A DNA stretch of 64,000 bases. Source: a virus. Lineage: Duplodnaviria; Caudoviricetes. Each line of letters opens with the position of its first letter. Position 1 is the stretch's first letter. The position numbers and the translations under genes were made by a program. Location: positions 1 through 64,000 of the IMG/VR virus record IMGVR_UViG_3300025912_000012; one strand, given 5' to 3'. The notes under the pieces are model-generated. The model was not told where the DNA came from, made no database searches, and saw only the letters and a list, made by a program, of their open reading frames with translations. This document shows positions 1 through 64,000 of this stretch, one piece after another.

Positions 1-892
1 CTTGGGTTTGATAGTGTTTGGGGTGTTGGTCAGCACGGCCGCCAGCACGGCGGGAGCGGATACGCCGCTCGCCTCAGGAGAACATGCGCCACGTGGATGT
101 ACATGGTCCACGTGCCACCGCCCCGATGGGCTGGCGCAGTGGACACGCTACGGGTGAACTCTGCCCGTAGGTCAGACCCAGGCATCTATATCCACGCCTG
201 GGGGACACTGGAGGGTGATGTGCGGGACGGTCCCGTGACCTCTAGACAACCACGTAACACGTGCCAGGCACGCGATTACCTTGGCTATATGCCCAAAATC
301 GGTACCTGATCCTAGGTATCAGTCGGTAATCACTGAGTAACACGTGGATGCGTAAAGCGACGACAGTCCGCCCCAGACCTTGATGGGCATCTGTCTCACG
401 GTAGGGATACCGGGATTCAGAAGAATGCTCTGTGAGGCAACGGGTGACACGTCGGGGACAACTTTAGCAACGGTGTAGCCAGCACTTTGACGCTGGTGAA
501 CCGTATCCCCGGTAAACGTGTCATCTCGCGCTAGTGGGAATGGGGGACATACGGAAAACGGTTGGGTTGCGGGTAATTCCCGTTAGGCGAGATGCCTAGT
601 CACTAAAAGCATATCGTTGCAATTGGCAAAGCTTGCCGATCCTGCGAATTGGGTGAGGGTAAGCGATGCGCGAATAGCTTGCTATACGCGTTGCAACGCG
701 AGATGTTTCGCGTCCAAGAAATCACAAGTTGCCAGCGTAACCACGGTGGAGTATGCGTCACGGGAGTGAGAGCGACGATATGTAGGCTGGCATTGAACGC
801 GCCAGCGACGATTGAGCTACGCCCTAGCTCATTGTCAGCATGCACCCAACGCGACAGTTGACAGATGTCGCGAGTGGGAATCCCGTCACCAA
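1..892 (+). ncRNA. candidate large structured non-coding RNA / structured leader
   Basis: No convincing ORF. Continuous hairpins with G.U pairs on + strand (e.g. CTACGGG/CCCGTAG, CGCGAATAGC/GCTATACGCG, TGAGCTA/TAGCTCA, CGCGACA/TGTCGCG). Family unknown. Confidence 0.5.
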
Positions 893-898
893 GAATGG

Positions 899-1140
899 GT
901 GATGGTGCGTGCCATCTGATTAGCGGAGAAAGTGAGTCATCAATGGATGCACTGGCTAATTCGCAAGTTGTACTAGCTGTCGTTGAGCACGATAACGGCA
1001 TCGTAGAGCAGCGCATTAACGACAAAGGCTGGATAATCCAGACCCTGGAACCTGACGTTATACGCGTCACGTTCCCGCTGATTCTCCACAACGCTAACTA
1101 AGAACACTAATTCCGCTAGTCAGATGGCATGCACCATTAC
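899..1140 (+). repeat. gene-enclosing inverted repeat, unit A (arms 899-927 / 1112-1140)
   Basis: 29 contiguous pairs, three of them G.U. Confidence 0.92.
943..1101 (+). CDS. small hypothetical protein (52 aa) in unit A
   Basis: ORF MDALAN... fills the loop between the arms. Confidence 0.7.
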   Translation: MDALANSQVVLAVVEHDNGIVEQRINDKGWIIQTLEPDVIRVTFPLILHNAN

Positions 1141-1173
1141 ACTTACGGAACCGTTCGCTTTACGGTGACGGAT

Positions 1174-1306
1174 AAGCGCATTACCTGATGTGCTCTGTGC
1201 ATGCGGTGATTATCTGTGTCCCTAAATCCAATGTTTACCTGGTATAGGTCGGGACGATTTACCAGCAGATTTCACCGTTTGCCTGAACACATCGGGTGAC
1301 GCGCTT
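1174..1306 (+). ncRNA. stem-enclosed non-coding unit B
   Basis: Arms 1174-1192 / 1288-1306. Inner helices CGGTGA..ATCTG/CAGAT..TCACCG and GTCCC/GGGAC. Confidence 0.6.
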
Positions 1307-1309
1307 TAC

Positions 1310-1649
1310 GGGTGCATGCATGCACACTTGCCTACCGGGGCAAGGGAGACACCATGCTTGAGAGTAGCGTGTATCAGTACCTGCTCAGTGAGAACGTAGG
1401 GCACAGCGTTATTGCGGGAATGATCGCGGAAGCGCTTATACACGGGAATTCCAACGGGTATCACGGATTCAAGGTCATCACGACCAATTCGGGATTCCCT
1501 GCGGAATTCCGGATCGAACGCATCGGGAAGCATCACGCCCCGGAACATCTCCCGGTTACCCCCGGGATCGTGGCACTATCGGACCTGATTGAACTAGTCG
1601 CCAGTAAGTGACAACCACTCCCGGTAGGTTAGCGTGCATGCATGCATTC
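1310..1649 (+). repeat. gene-enclosing inverted repeat, unit C (arms 1310-1339 / 1620-1649)
   Basis: 30-bp stem, 2 mismatches, G.U pairs. Confidence 0.9.
1354..1611 (+). CDS. hypothetical protein (85 aa) in unit C
   Basis: SD AAGGGAG; ORF fills the loop. Confidence 0.8.
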   Translation: MLESSVYQYLLSENVGHSVIAGMIAEALIHGNSNGYHGFKVITTNSGFPAEFRIERIGKHHAPEHLPVTPGIVALSDLIELVASK

Positions 1650-1651
1650 AC

Positions 1652-2132
1652 AGGGTGCATGTGCTCTCTTTTGGTCCCATGGGATATCCACTACCACAAG
1701 AACAGAAACTCAAGGATAAGGACAATCCCATGGCACAGCAGTCAGGTAACAACGGTCGCACGGGTCGCAGCAACGGGAGTCAGGTCAAGACTCCCCCGCC
1801 CGTGCAGGCTCCCACGGTCCTCGCCGTCACGCTCCCCAGCGATGACGAGTGGGACACGGGACACTACGCGATCTTGGAGCCCGAAGACCTCCCCAGCGAC
1901 GTGATCCTCGTGGCGCTGCGCGCCCAGGACATGCACGTCTCGTCCACGGGCAAGACGGTCATCCGCGCCAACGCCCAGTTCGAGCGCATCGACAGGACGA
2001 ACACCCTGTCGCTCACGCTCATGCGGAAGGCGACGGTCGGGGACACGAACAACCCCCAGCTGGTCAACCCGAAGAACAACGACAAGTAACAACCCGCATT
2101 CCCGTGGGATCAAATGAGAGCACATGCATTCT
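1652..2132 (+). repeat. gene-enclosing inverted repeat, unit D (arms 1652-1684 / 2100-2132)
   Basis: 33-bp stem, 1 U.U mismatch, 4 G.U pairs. Confidence 0.92.
1730..2089 (+). CDS. hypothetical protein (119 aa) in unit D
   Basis: SD AAGGA; strong GC3 codon bias. Confidence 0.85.
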   Translation: MAQQSGNNGRTGRSNGSQVKTPPPVQAPTVLAVTLPSDDEWDTGHYAILEPEDLPSDVILVALRAQDMHVSSTGKTVIRANAQFERIDRTNTLSLTLMRKATVGDTNNPQLVNPKNNDK

Positions 2133-2280
2133 TGCCTGTGAGTGCCTTTGAAAGGCACGGTAATACGCTTGTATACGGTAGTGAGTAGGCGTGAGCACTA
2201 ACTCTCGGTTGAGCTATGGTAGCCGCCCAAAGCACAGTGACCCAACGTAAACCGTGTCTTCCATAGGCACTCACGGGCAA
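2132..2280 (+). ncRNA. stem-enclosed non-coding unit E
   Basis: Arms 2132-2161 / 2251-2280 (30 bp, 2 mismatches) around ~90 nt without an ORF. Confidence 0.65.
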
Positions 2281-2282
2281 AA

Positions 2283-2618
2283 GCACATGCTGTACGTACT
2301 TAGGTGACGGATGTCTCTTTAAGGAGACATCATGCATGGTGAGGAATACAAGATATCCGGGTTGGCTATGAACGCTCCCTACGCTTTCGGGGTTTCCGCG
2401 ATAAGCGAGGAGATGTTTGAGGTCACGGTCAACCACATGATCGTGGGTTACGTTCTGCACAAGAAGAACGGGCGTTACGCCTGTCTCACCCGTGACGGGG
2501 TTTCCCTGAGCACGGGTGAGGGTACCGTCAACTTCCAGCTTTCCGTGCTGCGGGTAGTGAACCACTACCGTAACAACTAGCTGAGATCATCCGTCACCTA
2601 AGCGCGTACAGCATGTGT
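2283..2618 (+). repeat. gene-enclosing inverted repeat, unit F (arms 2283-2313 / 2588-2618)
   Basis: 31-bp stem, 1 mismatch, G.U pairs. Confidence 0.92.
2332..2580 (+). CDS. hypothetical protein (82 aa) in unit F
   Basis: SD AAGGAG; ORF fills the loop. Confidence 0.82.
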   Translation: MHGEEYKISGLAMNAPYAFGVSAISEEMFEVTVNHMIVGYVLHKKNGRYACLTRDGVSLSTGEGTVNFQLSVLRVVNHYRNN

Positions 2619-2625
2619 GTTCAAC

Positions 2626-2962
2626 GGTGCATGCATTCCGCAGGCTGCCTAGGGATAGGCAGGAAACAATGCCTCCTCGTAACAGTAATCGTGAAGAGCG
2701 TTCACCCGTATCTCTCACGGTGCCCGATAGTGACACTTTCTGCACGATCACGCTGGAAGGTCACCCCGAGTACACCGAGAAGATCTATGACGCGATCATG
2801 GCGGTTGCCGAGCCACGTCTGAAGATCGGGCGGGGTTCCGGGCAACTGGAACCGTCCCGTACCCCCGGGCTAGTCGGGGTACGGTATCTCTCCCTGGTGA
2901 TCCACAAGTCGGACCTGACAGAGTAACAACCACGTCTAGGCAGTCTGCGGTTTGCATGCATC
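2626..2962 (+). repeat. gene-enclosing inverted repeat, unit G (arms 2626-2652 / 2936-2962)
   Basis: 27-bp stem with one 2x2 U.U internal loop. Confidence 0.9.
2669..2926 (+). CDS. hypothetical protein (85 aa) in unit G
   Basis: SD-like AGGCAGGA; ORF fills the loop. Confidence 0.8.
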   Translation: MPPRNSNREERSPVSLTVPDSDTFCTITLEGHPEYTEKIYDAIMAVAEPRLKIGRGSGQLEPSRTPGLVGVRYLSLVIHKSDLTE

Positions 2963-2964
2963 TG

Positions 2965-3860
2965 AGATTAGTCATCATATGTTCACGACTATTCAGTCAG
3001 GAATCATGATGCGGTTTCGAACATAGCCTCTGACTAGCAGTCAGGGGCTTACCGTCTGTTCTCAGTTAATGGCAAGCAGATATGCGAGCCAAGACCCGGA
3101 CAGCCGCCAACCTACCGGCGCAAGCGATCCGGGAGTATGACGTGTGATCACGGATAACACTCGTCTTAAGAATGAAGATTAACCGTGAAACCATTGTTCC
3201 GGAAAGCGAGACTCCAGGGCACATACGCTCTGGCGGAATTCCCGGAAAGCCAGCGGTAATACGCGGCTGGCAAGCTGGAACCGTCCCCAGAGGGCTGGAA
3301 CGCAAAGGGGAGTAGCGCGGGATGCGCATCCCTACCGGGTAAGGATGGAAGACCGTGCGTTCGCGAGTCCGCTCACTCTTAGGGTGAGACATCCCGTAAG
3401 ACAATGGCTTTAATCGCTTTGCCTGAACGATCCGTGACATCACCTCTGTGCGGTAGTGCATCGTGATTCATCGTGATCCCCACGCGATTCAGCCATCTTA
3501 CGGGATATCTGACTCTAAGAGAAAGGGAAATAGCGGTGAGTTATTTATCCTGATGTAACACGGTGATCTCTCATTCCTTGATTATTAACCGGGAATGAGA
3601 GTGTTCCCTGCTAGCGGGTTTATAGCTAGGTTGCCCGGTCCGTTGTCCTAGGTTTGGCGAGAGTCAATTACTCTCGCCATTCCTGGTATCACGGAAAGGA
3701 GGATATCGCGGTGCACAGCTAGCCAAAGGTGCCTATACCTGATCCGACTCTGATTAGCCGATGAGGCATAAATGAATGTGAGGTTTGTGGAGAGTAGTCA
3801 CAGAAACCCCCCACGGGTACTCTCCGCATTCCCCGATTCGCATATGCCATATCCGAGGAG
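2965..3860 (+). ncRNA. candidate large structured non-coding RNA(s)
   Basis: No credible ORF. Many hairpins and a long stem 3376-3409 / 3491-3521. Confidence 0.55.
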
Positions 3861-3865
3861 GAAGA

Positions 3866-4072
3866 ATGAACCTGTTCCCTGCTACCGCTGCGATACTCCT
3901 CCGGGAGCGTACGTGGCTGAGTGATGCCGCCATCGAGAACTGGCTCCGCAACTACGGGCGCGGCGGTCACTCCGAAGGTCACCCGCTGTGGGTGAATACG
4001 CGGGACGGTAGCGGAGCCATGTACAAATTCCGGTATGTCAGCGGACTATGGCGGTTCGTTAAGGAGAAGTGA
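3866..4072 (+). CDS. hypothetical protein
   Basis: SD GAGGAGG; first of a run of coupled genes. Confidence 0.75.
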   Translation: MNLFPATAAILLRERTWLSDAAIENWLRNYGRGGHSEGHPLWVNTRDGSGAMYKFRYVSGLWRFVKEK

Positions 4073-4248
4073 TGAAGAAGATCGTGATCGTGGCGCTTAT
4101 CGCGGGAATTCTGGGGGTCACCCTGGGATACGCGATAGCGCAAGTCACCCGCAGTCAGGTGACATCCGTTGCCTGTCCCACGGAAGACTCCTGCAACGTG
4201 GACTACTACGGGGGAGCCTGGCACATCGTCCCCGGTCGTCCCAGCTAA
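4072..4248 (+). CDS. small membrane-anchored protein (CPTEDSC motif)
   Basis: Read by hand: MKKIVIVALIAGILG...; coupled to upstream stop. Confidence 0.7.
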   Translation: MKKIVIVALIAGILGVTLGYAIAQVTRSQVTSVACPTEDSCNVDYYGGAWHIVPGRPS

Positions 4249-4259
4249 AGGAGGGAAAC

Positions 4260-4493
4260 ATGCCGCGTAAGACAATCCCGGTGGAACGGGTGAAAGAACT
4301 CGTCAACGGGATGCTGGAACGCTCAGCGGATGACGTATCCCCGGACAGTCGCCTGATGGTGGCGAGTCTCCTCGAAACCATCCTGATGGAGACGGGCAAT
4401 TACCACGGGTTCGGGTACCTCCCCGGGGTTATCGACTTCGACAAGAACCCCCCGGAGGTCATCGGGGATGAGTCGCGCAGGAGGTACCACTAG
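4260..4493 (+). CDS. hypothetical phage protein
   Basis: SD AAGGAGG. Confidence 0.8.
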   Translation: MPRKTIPVERVKELVNGMLERSADDVSPDSRLMVASLLETILMETGNYHGFGYLPGVIDFDKNPPEVIGDESRRRYH

Positions 4494-4626: not shown

Positions 4627-4953
4627 GTGAAACTCTCCGATTTCCCGGACGGGACCCGCGTCTACTCCGCGAAGCACAAGACGCACGGGACAGTGGATCA
4701 CCCCGCAAGGAAGCTGGTCCACGTCAAGATGGACAACACCGGGCAGGTCCGCGCTCTCCCGGTGGATGACCTGTCCATCGTCACGGAGTCGCGCCCCCAG
4801 CGGGAATTCCGCGAGACTCCCCCGAAGCTCCGCAGCACGCGGTTCAACCGCAAGGTCCCGAAGGCTGATGTCCCGGTGCCTGCGCATCTGGCACGCGTCC
4901 GCAGGCGTTCCAGCGGGTACACGAACCTGTCCCGCATGATGCTGGTGCGGTGA
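4627..4953 (+). CDS. hypothetical protein (SH3-like N-terminus possible)
   Basis: SD AAAGGA, GTG start. Confidence 0.7.
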   Translation: MKLSDFPDGTRVYSAKHKTHGTVDHPARKLVHVKMDNTGQVRALPVDDLSIVTESRPQREFRETPPKLRSTRFNRKVPKADVPVPAHLARVRRRSSGYTNLSRMMLVR

Positions 4954-62428: not shown

Positions 62429-62500
62429 GGGGAGATAGTTCAACGGTCAGAATTTCCGGCTCCAACCCGGAAGATGTGGGTTCGAATCCTACTCGCCCTG
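62429..62500 (+). tRNA. tRNA-Trp(CCA)
   Basis: Cloverleaf, loop CTCCAAC, GGTTCGAATCC. Confidence 0.88.
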
Positions 62501-62589
62501 CGTTACGCCTCTCGTACAGGCTTGCTAAATTGAAAACTACATCTTTTCAGTACAGGTCGGGGGACGGGTTGTGGTACCGTCCTCCGCAT

Positions 62590-62663
62590 GGGCTGCTAGC
62601 TCCAATTGGCAGAGCAACTCCTTTGCACGGAGAAGGCTATCGGTTCGAATCCGATGCGGTCCA
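62590..62663 (+). tRNA. tRNA-Ala(TGC)
   Basis: Cloverleaf, loop TTTGCAC, G3.U70. Confidence 0.92.
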
Positions 62664-62664
62664 C

Positions 62665-62862
62665 GTGGCAGATAAGAAACTATCAGATGACCTGATTCGC
62701 TGGATCAGGACAGTCAATCTCCCCCAGCGGGTGGTTGCGCACCAGCTGAAACGTAATCACGGGATCACGGTTGACCAGTCACTGATATGGCAGATCAGGG
62801 CAGGCAAGAAATACGCAGACGTTTCAGCTGTCCCCCCGCTTGACACTCTCGGGGATAGCTGA
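62665..62862 (+). CDS. small HTH-like protein within the tRNA array
   Basis: KLSDDLIRWIR...VDQSLIWQIRAGKKY resembles HNH-associated HTH tails. Confidence 0.55.
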   Translation: MADKKLSDDLIRWIRTVNLPQRVVAHQLKRNHGITVDQSLIWQIRAGKKYADVSAVPPLDTLGDS

Positions 62863-62928
62863 TAGATTTCCTCTCGTTCCCCCGTTGACTTGCTCCTCAG
62901 GAGCACTCGGGGTTCTCGGGGGAACACA

Positions 62929-63002
62929 TGCCAGCTCGTCTAACGTAAGACACCCGTCCTGATAAGACGGGAGATGGTGATAGCGTAATTCACCGCTGGC
63001 CC
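62929..63002 (+). tRNA. tRNA-Ile(GAT), atypical T-loop
   Basis: Loop CTGATAA, D-arm and acceptor GCCAGC/GCTGGC; T-loop TAGCGTAAT lacks TTC. Confidence 0.65.
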
Positions 63003-63005
63003 TAT

Positions 63006-63078
63006 GGGGCTGTAGCTCAGCTGGCAGAGCACCTGCATGGCGTGCAGGGGGTCCGGGGTTCGAGTCCCCGTCGCTCCA
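63006..63078 (+). tRNA. tRNA-Ala(GGC)
   Basis: Canonical cloverleaf, G3.U70. Confidence 0.93.
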
Positions 63079-63100
63079 CGCAAAAGCGAAGGAGAAAAGA

Positions 63101-63232
63101 ATGGCTAAGAGCAGGGTCAGGAAATGGCTAGGGACTGACGTATCGCTCCGCAAGGCAATGATCTTCATGGTGTTCGTGATGGTTGCCTTGTTCTTGCTCG
63201 CGGTATTCGGGGTGATACAGCCCAGCAAGTAG
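63101..63232 (+). CDS. small membrane protein
   Basis: SD AAGGAG; one TM helix. Confidence 0.65.
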   Translation: MAKSRVRKWLGTDVSLRKAMIFMVFVMVALFLLAVFGVIQPSK

Positions 63233-63274
63233 TGTTAATCAGGATCGAGGAAGACGGTAATCTGCCGCGTGGAG

Positions 63275-63772
63275 ATGGACACTCACCTGAAGGGCGAGTT
63301 CGCTGTCCTGAAGGTCTTGATGCGAGCGGTAGAAAAAGGCTGGATAGCTAGTCGTCCGACCCGAGAGTGCCGATACGATCTAGTGCTAGATGATAAGGTT
63401 AAGCTCTATCGAGTTCAAGTTAAGTATGCTAATCGGCTAGCATCTCACACTAAAGGAGCGATTCATCTAGCTCTTACGCAAAGTGGAATAAGAAAAAAGA
63501 ATCCCTACCTAGATAGCGAAGTGGATGCACTAATTGTCTACATCGCACCAGCAGACATGTTGATCTGGCTAGAGACAAGTCATTTCCACAAGAAACGACA
63601 GCTCCATATTAGATATGAACCAGGCAAAAATAAGCAGAGGCAGGGAATTCTTCTTGCTGAGAATTACATTTGGTTAGCGGCTTATAGTGTAAGGGTAAGC
63701 GCGCTGGTCTCGGGGACCAGCAGACCAGGTTCGAGTCCTGGTAAGCCGACTAGGCAAGCCACGTGCCTTTAG
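63275..63772 (+). CDS. PD-(D/E)XK homing-type endonuclease (I-Ssp6803I-like)
   Basis: KGEFA...RYDLV...RVQVK...Y...EVD; AT-rich relative to flanks. Confidence 0.85.
   Translation: MDTHLKGEFAVLKVLMRAVEKGWIASRPTRECRYDLVLDDKVKLYRVQVKYANRLASHTKGAIHLALTQSGIRKKNPYLDSEVDALIVYIAPADMLIWLETSHFHKKRQLHIRYEPGKNKQRQGILLAENYIWLAAYSVRVSALVSGTSRPGSSPGKPTRQATCL
63678..63749 (+). tRNA. tRNA-Pro(CGG)
   Basis: Acceptor CGGCTTA/TAAGCCG, loop CTCGGGG, GGTTCGAGTCC. Confidence 0.88.
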
Positions 63773-63817
63773 CTGCCACCCTTGCTAGCAGGTTGAACGG
63801 GCAGCATGTGGCACCAT

Positions 63818-63888
63818 CCGGATGTAGTGAAGGGGTAAAACGCCAGCCCTGGGAGCTGGAGTCGGAGGTTCGAATCCTCCCATCTGGA
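63818..63888 (+). tRNA. tRNA-Pro (TGG by stem register, C33)
   Basis: Acceptor CCGGATG/CATCTGG, stem CCAGC/GCTGG, loop CCTGGGA. Confidence 0.82.
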
Positions 63889-64000
63889 CGCAGCTGAGTT
63901 CTCCCCCCTGTAAGTTCAGCTGTAATATGATGCGCATGAAAAGATCAGTATCCCGGGCGACTCAGTGGAGACTGGAAACGGTCTGTTGAGGCTCAGAGAT

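Follow-up and report, generated by a model that had tools for sequence, protein, structure and literature searches.

Covarying gene-enclosing stems in a phage RNA array: local start-site helices as candidate folding intermediates rather than a general translation switch

The first 64 kb (positions 1 to 64,000, hereafter the window) of a 135,079-bp virus contig, IMG/VR record IMGVR_UViG_3300025912_000012, includes close to its start an array in which each of five small plus-strand open reading frames (ORFs; units A, C, D, F and G) is enclosed by two long complementary arms, and in which a portion of each 5' arm can also pair with the initiation region of the ORF that it precedes. The arrangement raises the question of whether translation of each ORF has to await synthesis of the arm located beyond the stop codon. 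A first-pass annotation had proposed a built-in switch of this type for all five units, with the 5' arm occluding its own ribosome-binding site until the longer end-to-end stem could form. The analysis reported here leads to a different answer: the local helices are regarded, with roughly even confidence, as transient co-transcriptional folding intermediates within closing stems resembling those processed by ribonuclease III (RNase III), and they are not strong, general or suitably conserved enough to be called a translation licence.

Each of the ORFs, together with the non-coding units B and E, is flanked by two arms that form a helix of 27–37 bp. The arms of the units under discussion are as follows.

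Unit A arms, plus strand: inverted repeat of a 5' arm at 899–934 and a 3' arm at 1105–1140, with 29 contiguous pairs (899–927 with 1112–1140), forming in both the unit and the whole-array folds.
Unit C arms, plus strand: inverted repeat of a 5' arm at 1310–1339 and a 3' arm at 1620–1649, with compensatory changes in lineages L001 and L009.
Unit D arms, plus strand: inverted repeat of a 5' arm at 1652–1684 (1652–1685 in the feature list) and a 3' arm at 2100–2132.
Unit E arms (non-coding cassette 2132–2280), plus strand: inverted repeat of a 5' arm at 2132–2161 and a 3' arm at 2251–2280.
Unit F arms, plus strand: inverted repeat of a 5' arm at 2281–2317 and a 3' arm at 2583–2620, the latter beginning 2 nt past the stop codon.
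Unit G arms, plus strand: inverted repeat of a 5' arm at 2626–2652 and a 3' arm at 2936–2962.

The duplex energies of these long stems lie between −49 and −59 kcal/mol, and the stems form in folds of single units as well as in the fold of the entire 2,096-nt array. Stems of at least 20 bp spanning 60–800 nt are found, genome-wide, almost only at 899–3521 and at the adjoining contig end (134021–135028). Individual arms exhibit features of their own: that on the 5' side of unit A includes the sequence GGAG at 925–928 together with the 5' half (905–915) of the claimed local pairing, that of unit E bears an internal hairpin (GUGCCUUUGAAAGGCAC), and in unit F the final 4 nt of the 5' arm (2314–2317) pair with 2583–2586 across a 1-nt bulge.

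A protein search conducted with the product of unit D identified three groups of homologues in soil metagenomes, and the contigs that carry them, plus one extra contig (L014) obtained from a metagenome scan, provided the five lineages used for comparison. Identity to the window was 97% for L014, 84% for L013 and L016, 83–86% for L001–L008 and L017, and 75–78% for L009–L012 and L015. Across the five lineages, compensatory double changes were recorded at 19 pairs of the long stems and changes via G.U at 19 pairs, with G.U cells outnumbering A.C cells by 61 to 17. The arm pair at 909 in unit A, for example, is G.U in the window, A-U in L014 and G-C in L013, and that at 2643 in unit G is G.U in the window, A-U in L001 and G-C in L009. 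Because of the 19 compensatory pairs and the large excess of G.U over A.C, the pairing of the long stems is, on this comparative sequence evidence, under selection at the RNA level on the plus strand. A role for the repeats at the DNA level was considered and rejected, the bias towards G.U over A.C arguing against it.

Each stem is also interrupted, at a fixed place, by an internal mismatch that separates an outer helix of approximately 16 bp from an inner helix of 10–13 bp. The sites concerned are arm position 17/20 of C, 18 of D and F, 17/20 of E and 11–12 of G, and they are kept in nearly all lineages though the flanking pairs covary. In appearance these conserved mismatches resemble the cleavage-directing internal loops of the RNase III sites of phage T7.

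The scheme that we favour for the locus would make the five ORFs the cargo of a chain of stem-closed cassettes carried on one long plus-strand phage RNA, putatively a single transcript, with the 27–37 bp closing helix of each cassette as the selected feature. The role of that helix would be RNase III-type processing and end-clamping, in the manner of the leader-trailer helices of rRNA; processing of this type is suggested by the length of the helices, their covariation, the conserved internal mismatches, and the analogy with rRNA stalks and T7 signals. The precursor of the phage T7 early mRNA (~7000 nt) carries five RNase III processing signals (PMC3867540), and the present array is similar in that double-stranded RNA elements separate the units of what would be a polycistronic message; the T7 sites are local hairpins between genes, whereas the helices described here enclose genes. 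In the latter respect they are closer to the stalks of 16S and 23S rRNA, in which the helix is likewise built by sequences flanking the whole cargo, and both a flanking-sequence helix of at least 20 bp and RNA-level selection on the transcribed strand were found here. Two differences from rRNA stalks are that the cargo is mRNA with a ribosome site packed against the helix, and that cleavage is, by analogy, putative.

A scan of positions 1–4300 for promoters and terminators detected no plus-strand sigma-70-like promoter, and the sole plus-strand terminator-like hairpin in that interval (1639–1663) is within chance expectation; this absence of unit-level promoter and terminator signals was counted in favour of chained cassettes. 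Within 1639–1672 a GCATGC-type palindrome is common to the C 3' arm and the D 5' arm, which can together build a junction hairpin followed by CTCTCTTTTG; this hairpin, flagged as terminator-like, competes with the cassette stems.

Apart from the five small ORFs, positions 1–3860 of the window are largely non-coding. The ORFs are as follows.

Unit A ORF, plus strand, 943–1101: 52 amino acids, with an excess of third-position differences from relatives; its first 10 nt (943–952) constitute the claimed local partner of the arm.
Unit C ORF, plus strand, 1354–1611: 85 amino acids, with a codon-position pattern against relatives.
Unit D ORF, plus strand, 1730–2089: 119 amino acids, with homologues of 73–78% identity in soil metagenomes and a codon-position pattern.
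Unit F ORF, plus strand, 2332–2580: 82 amino acids, with a codon-position pattern against relatives.
Unit G ORF, plus strand, 2669–2926: 85 amino acids, with a codon-position pattern against relatives.

Third codon positions hold most of the differences between the five ORFs and their relatives, which indicates that A, C, D, F and G are real genes. A leaderless start for D at an in-frame AUG within the arm (1679), where a database gene call places a protein of 136 amino acids, was considered and rejected, that frame being lost in L013 and L001; the likely start of D is thus at 1730.

All five of the local complementarities claimed in the first-pass annotation are present in the sequence, and each of the 5' halves falls, as claimed, inside the gene-enclosing 5' arm of its own unit (899–934, 1310–1339, 1652–1684, 2281–2317 and 2626–2652).

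Unit A local pairing, plus strand: GUGCGU-G-CCAU at 905–915 with AUGGAUGCAC at 943–952; 10 bp, one of them G.U, with a 1-nt bulge.
Unit C local hairpin, plus strand: CUUGCC at 1327–1332 with GGCAAG at 1339–1344, adjoining the Shine-Dalgarno (SD) sequence GGGAGA.
Unit D local helix, plus strand: CCAUGGGAU at 1677–1685 with AUCCCAUGG at 1725–1733; 9 bp, the 3' half including the AUG at 1730.
Unit F local hairpin, plus strand: GAUGUCUC at 2310–2317 with GAGACAUC at 2324–2331; 8 bp over the SD sequence AAGGAG.
Unit G local hairpin, plus strand: CUGCCUA at 2645–2651 with UAGGCAG at 2656–2662; 7 bp.

When excised, the hairpins of C, G and F have energies of −8.9, −9.9 and −11.4 kcal/mol respectively. 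The excised D segment reaches −16.7 kcal/mol, the nine claimed pairs alone giving −11.2, and the excised A segment −15.3 kcal/mol, only −4.3 of which is provided by the two claimed 4-bp blocks. The likelihood of such helices arising by chance was assessed from the longest uninterrupted run of Watson-Crick pairs that each arm can form with the start region of its own unit, set against those formed by the same arm and the start regions of 203 other genes; this test replaced an RNAduplex energy null that was uninformative since it allowed large interior loops. The helices of D (9 bp; P = 0), F (8 bp; P = 0.005) and G (7 bp; P = 0.025) exceeded chance, and those of A (P = 0.25) and C (P = 0.32) were at chance level, although the value for C is an underestimate, its partner having been clipped by the test window. 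In twelve of the 203 other genes (a baseline of ~6%) the start region can form at least 7 bp with the gene's own upstream 33 nt. Compared with dinucleotide shuffles, only the nascent leader of F folds better (z = −2.7), the corresponding values being −1.1 for A, −0.5 for C, −1.3 for D and −0.5 for G. The local helix of D derives from repeats of the palindrome CCCAUGGG. The inner end of the D 5' arm is itself a perfect 12-nt palindrome, ATCCCATGGGAT at 1673–1684 (the inner-end palindrome is also given as AUCCCAUGGGAU), which holds the local 5' half (1677–1685).

Comparison with the related lineages established that the local pairing is kept in all of them for C, D, F and G, with almost no variation: three one-sided wobble-compatible changes were recorded and zero compensatory double changes. 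The C hairpin is invariant but for one U.G-compatible change in L014, and the D helix has one G.U-compatible change in L009. Loop lengths vary, by 15–20 nt in D, by a 17-nt insertion in F of L009 and by 1 nt in G and in F of L013, with both halves intact throughout. L009 has lost the seventh local pair of G, the long-range partner remaining paired through two wobbles. The pairing in A fares worse, since in L014 a G to A change in the arm combined with a synonymous GAT-to-GAC change creates a local A.C mismatch while the long-range pair becomes A-U, and in L001 the local partner is absent.

Conservation of the local pairing is nevertheless weak evidence for function, because each half is independently constrained, the 5' half by the long stem and the 3' half by the start site. 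The latter constraint is apparent from a ribosome-site motif, GGAGACAYCAUG (SD sequence, spacer and start), that is common to cassettes C, F, X and A of L013, the arms of which are unrelated; it is located at 1346–1356 and 2324–2334 of the window and at 4697–4707 of L001, and the 3' half of the F hairpin belongs to it. Cassette X is an extra coding cassette present between C and D in L001 and L009. In L001 its start-site hairpin has a 5' half that lies outside the arm, so both helices coexist, and in L009 the start-site hairpin is only weak.

Pairing of the 5' arm when nascent is not specific to coding cassettes. The nascent pairing probability of the inner 10 arm nucleotides is 0.91, 0.86 and 0.86 in the non-coding units E, H and R2, compared with 0.58–0.98 in the coding units and 0.59 ± 0.18 in random segments. 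These figures bear upon an explanation that dispenses with function altogether, according to which the complementarities would reflect chance and palindromic content, the two halves being conserved for other reasons. The chance-level results for A and C, the four of five nascent leaders that fold no better than shuffles, the origin of the D helix in repeats of a palindrome, the lack of any double compensatory change and the ~59% local pairing of a random 30-nt segment all fit this explanation, which we nonetheless consider quite unlikely: D, F and G are jointly above the genome baseline, all three of the substitutions seen preserve pairing, and the leader of F stands at z = −2.7.

The order of folding was predicted from equilibrium folds of chains of growing length. 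That each local helix competes with the end-to-end stem, as had been claimed, is correct at the level of sequence, and it is genuine for F because 2314–2317 pair also with 2583–2586 of the 3' arm; as to whether the local helix is favoured in the nascent chain, the units differ. In C it is predicted with a probability of 0.67–0.97 at most nascent lengths, falling to 0 once the 3' arm is made; in D the probability is 0.9–0.98 until the 3' arm appears and then 0; and in F it is ~1.0 when nascent and 0.55 in the full unit. The G helix, despite its −9.9 kcal/mol in isolation, never exceeds 0.17 in nascent chains, and the A pairing is predicted only at a chain length of 60 nt, with a probability of ~0 beyond 100 nt.

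A second part of the original proposal, that the long stem frees the ribosome-binding site, is borne out by the models in two units only. The mean unpaired probability of positions −13 to +2 changes clearly, between nascent chain and full unit, in D alone (0.31 to 0.49), the other values being 0.38 to 0.35 for A, 0.48 to 0.48 for C, 0.39 to 0.42 for F and 0.55 to 0.57 for G. The cost of opening the ribosome footprint (−18 to +10), without the 3' arm and then in the full unit, falls by ~5 kcal/mol in D (13.6 to 8.5 kcal/mol) and F (14.7 to 9.2), is essentially unchanged in G (14.3 to 14.7) and rises in A (13.6 to 17.7) and C (14.1 to 19.9), in the latter two because the closing helix reaches up to or into the footprint. 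Shuffling of the 3' arm returned the costs to their no-arm values, and the direction of change was identical in every related lineage. Over the core of the site the opening cost is 9.7–11.3 kcal/mol in nascent chains and 7.1–10.2 kcal/mol in full units, the genome median being 7.8; in C and G the site pairs with codons 2–3 instead once the 5' arm has been withdrawn.

Such changes invite the proposal of a switch limited to D, F and possibly C, whereby nascent or 3'-truncated RNA would hide the SD sequence or AUG and pairing of the 3' arm would release it, with the consequence that only complete messages are translated efficiently. In its favour, the local helix is predicted at probabilities of 0.9–1.0 until the 3' arm appears, the fall in footprint cost in D and F is abolished by the 3'-arm shuffle and runs in the same direction across all the relatives, the helices exceed chance with both halves surviving loop indels, and co-transcriptional hairpins that sequester the SD sequence are established in type I toxin mRNAs (PMC6733600). 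We judge it unlikely all the same. A fall of ~5 kcal/mol is modest, and the local helix of F is still 55% present in the completed unit; C and G gain nothing, and A and C worsen; compensatory covariation is nil; cassette X lacks competition between arm and start site; and the delay imposed would amount merely to the seconds needed to transcribe 240–480 nt. A further objection is that equally strong hairpins occur at 20–28% of ordinary starts, as set out below.

Opening of positions −15 to +3, within a context of −70 to +35, costs 10.5–11.5 kcal/mol in the five units, equivalent to the 75th–85th percentile of 208 starts with a median of 7.8 kcal/mol. As a group the units are more costly than other genes (Mann-Whitney P = 0.006, or P = 0.02 against the 99 genes with an upstream gap of at least 30 nt). 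The first-pass annotation had itself conceded that equally stable local hairpins, if as common at other starts in the genome, would count against it, and this is in part what was observed: the cost of each unit's start site is equalled or exceeded by 20–28% of ordinary genes with an upstream gap of at least 30 nt, and hairpins of such strength are therefore not locks.

As a general rule, the claim that translation is licensed only on complete transcripts is not supported. Two of the five units behave in this way in the models; the local pairs lack double changes; the A pairing is disrupted in L014 and absent from L001; the X hairpin avoids the arm; and the arms of non-coding units are equally paired. 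For D and F at least, the claim might be retained in the form of a ribosome-binding site that the inner 5' arm keeps shut pending transcription and pairing of the arm past the stop, and that closes again should the latter arm be lost, which would constitute a check, built into an early phage message, on the completeness of the mRNA and the integrity of its 3' end, with a polarity opposite to that of hok/aapA; we view this as a doubtful proposition. The start-site hairpins would add at most a modest, unit-specific kinetic layer, and do not amount to a general switch.

A separate role after processing can also be envisaged. The stop codons (for example, 1099–1105 and 2578–2583) are located only 2–10 nt before the 3' arms, with the consequence that a ribosome terminating there would need to open the inner part of the closing helix. 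Were the outer helix to be cut, and the 3' arm removed or opened by 3' exonucleases or by terminating ribosomes, the inner 5' arm might snap back onto the ribosome site, thereby acting as a sensor of 3'-end integrity that silences decaying messages, or as a protective 5' hairpin that stabilises the processed RNA. The proximity of the stops is consistent with this idea, as is the way in which conserved mismatches set an outer helix of ~16 bp apart from an inner one of 10–13 bp that carries the competing bases. It is rendered improbable by models from which the outer helix was removed, in which the inner long-range pairs still dominate with probabilities of 0.94–1.0 in C, D and G.

Several observations weigh against interpreting the local helices as transient folding intermediates within RNase III-like closing stems. 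Taken together, the cassettes have start sites costlier to open than those of other genes; arm-start helices of 7–9 bp in three of the five units exceed the 6% genome baseline; the models predict, for every lineage alike, that D and F open on completion; the pairing in C, D, F and G is kept, with wobble-compatible substitutions and tolerance of indels of 1–20 nt, from which some direct selection on the local helices is possible; and the phage encodes no RNase III gene. Set beside the evidence reviewed above, they leave the interpretation of the helices as folding intermediates at about even odds of being correct. Leaders in this array are very short (arm and AUG are 8–16 nt apart in A, C, F and G), and the ribosome-binding region is therefore the earliest sequence with which the inner end of a still unpaired 5' arm could pair. 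In C, D and F, according to the models, a local helix would form during transcription, to be displaced a few seconds later when the 3' arm enters by strand invasion from the free outer arm. The local helices may briefly delay the loading of ribosomes, and in so doing may help the closing helix to form free of them; translation would not be gated on and off, the ribosome site of the finished cassette still being moderately structured.

Competition between structures in a growing chain has precedents. The maturation gene of phage MS2 is controlled by the kinetics of RNA folding, and is translated only while nascent; it has in common with the switch of the first-pass annotation that translation depends on which of the competing structures the growing chain holds, the polarity being the reverse. 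In type I toxin mRNAs, metastable hairpins have been proposed to hide the SD sequence during synthesis and then to be superseded by long-range pairing between the 5' and 3' regions (aapA3/IsoA3 of Helicobacter pylori, PMC6733600; aapA1, PMC5416894; hok/Sok, PMC9841398). A likeness would lie in local hairpins at the SD region, predicted here in nascent C, D and F but not in A or G, and a further one lies in their replacement at full length by a 5'-3' stem, a replacement that was found here in the folds and is backed by covariation of the long stem, although F keeps 55% of its local helix. In the toxin systems, however, the mRNA is held inert by the pairing of its two ends until the 3' end is trimmed, whereas the polarity predicted for D and F is neutral or opening rather than closing; the toxins are small and hydrophobic, whereas the products here are of 52–119 amino acids, soluble-looking and devoid of hydrophobic-peptide character; the toxin mRNAs have an antisense RNA, whereas none is evident here, no specific antisense search having been made; and the present array, unlike hok/aapA, chains together five coding and several non-coding units. 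Membership of the hok/aapA class fails because of the differing polarity, the nature of the products and the want of an evident antitoxin RNA.

Pairing of the two ends of a bacterial mRNA influences translation or RNase access in icaR of Staphylococcus aureus (PMC3868564) and hbs of Bacillus subtilis (PMC5737220), with which the cassettes have in common that both ends of the message pair with each other. In icaR the 3' untranslated region pairs with the SD sequence itself and represses, whereas here the 3' arm pairs with an anti-SD segment upstream of the SD sequence; direct pairing of a 3' region with the SD sequence was not found, only the helix of A reaching as far as GGAG at 925–928.

The source of the contig (G + C content 57.7%; completeness 88% by CheckV, from the IMG/VR record) is, judging from its protein matches, an uncultured actinobacterial phage, since its ribonucleotide reductase has 51% identity to the homologue of Actinomycetia phage DSL-LC01 and the remaining top matches are from mycobacterial and Streptomyces phages. 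In DSL-LC01 itself no comparable stems were detected in the 50 kb scanned, and the annotation of the next 50 kb lists structural and replication genes. Searches of the region against a phage collection by megablast, blastn and tblastn gave no match, and one scan of IMG/VR for relatives found none. Pfam and PHROGs returned zero matches for the five proteins, Rfam detected no family in 1–4300, protein D gave an AlphaFold model too poor for use (pLDDT, the predicted local distance difference test, of 44), and a protein atlas search with protein C yielded no lead. The phage encodes an RtcB RNA ligase, the gene for which precedes, by a few kb, a cluster that contains at least five tRNA genes (Trp, two Ala and two Pro; window 56645–57745 and 62429–63889).

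Two further long-range stems of 24–30 bp are located at the opposite end of the contig (genome 134021–134141 and 134874–135028). The array probably continues across the contig ends, with position 1 not being a true genome terminus, because the contigs of relatives run through the equivalent junction.

When 899–2962 of the window is set against L001, L009, L013 and L014, cassettes appear to have been exchanged as modules. L014 is the same as the window in D, F and G, and its proteins A and C are only 81–89% identical; in L009 the cargo of C has been replaced, with arms and leader unchanged; in L001, E is longer by ~100 nt; and the F protein declines to 40% identity while the F arms stay ~95% identical. 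The structured non-coding region upstream of the array (60–837 of the window) corresponds to unrelated sequence in L014 (59–726), a lineage otherwise 97% identical.

If the 3' arm truly opens the ribosome site, the array would represent a means, based on RNA only, of restricting translation to complete messages and of uncoupling it from transcription, which would be of interest to RNA biologists and a possible design principle for synthetic operons. On present evidence the clearer value of the analysis is negative with regard to such a switch, and the striking feature of the locus is its set of covarying, gene-enclosing stems.

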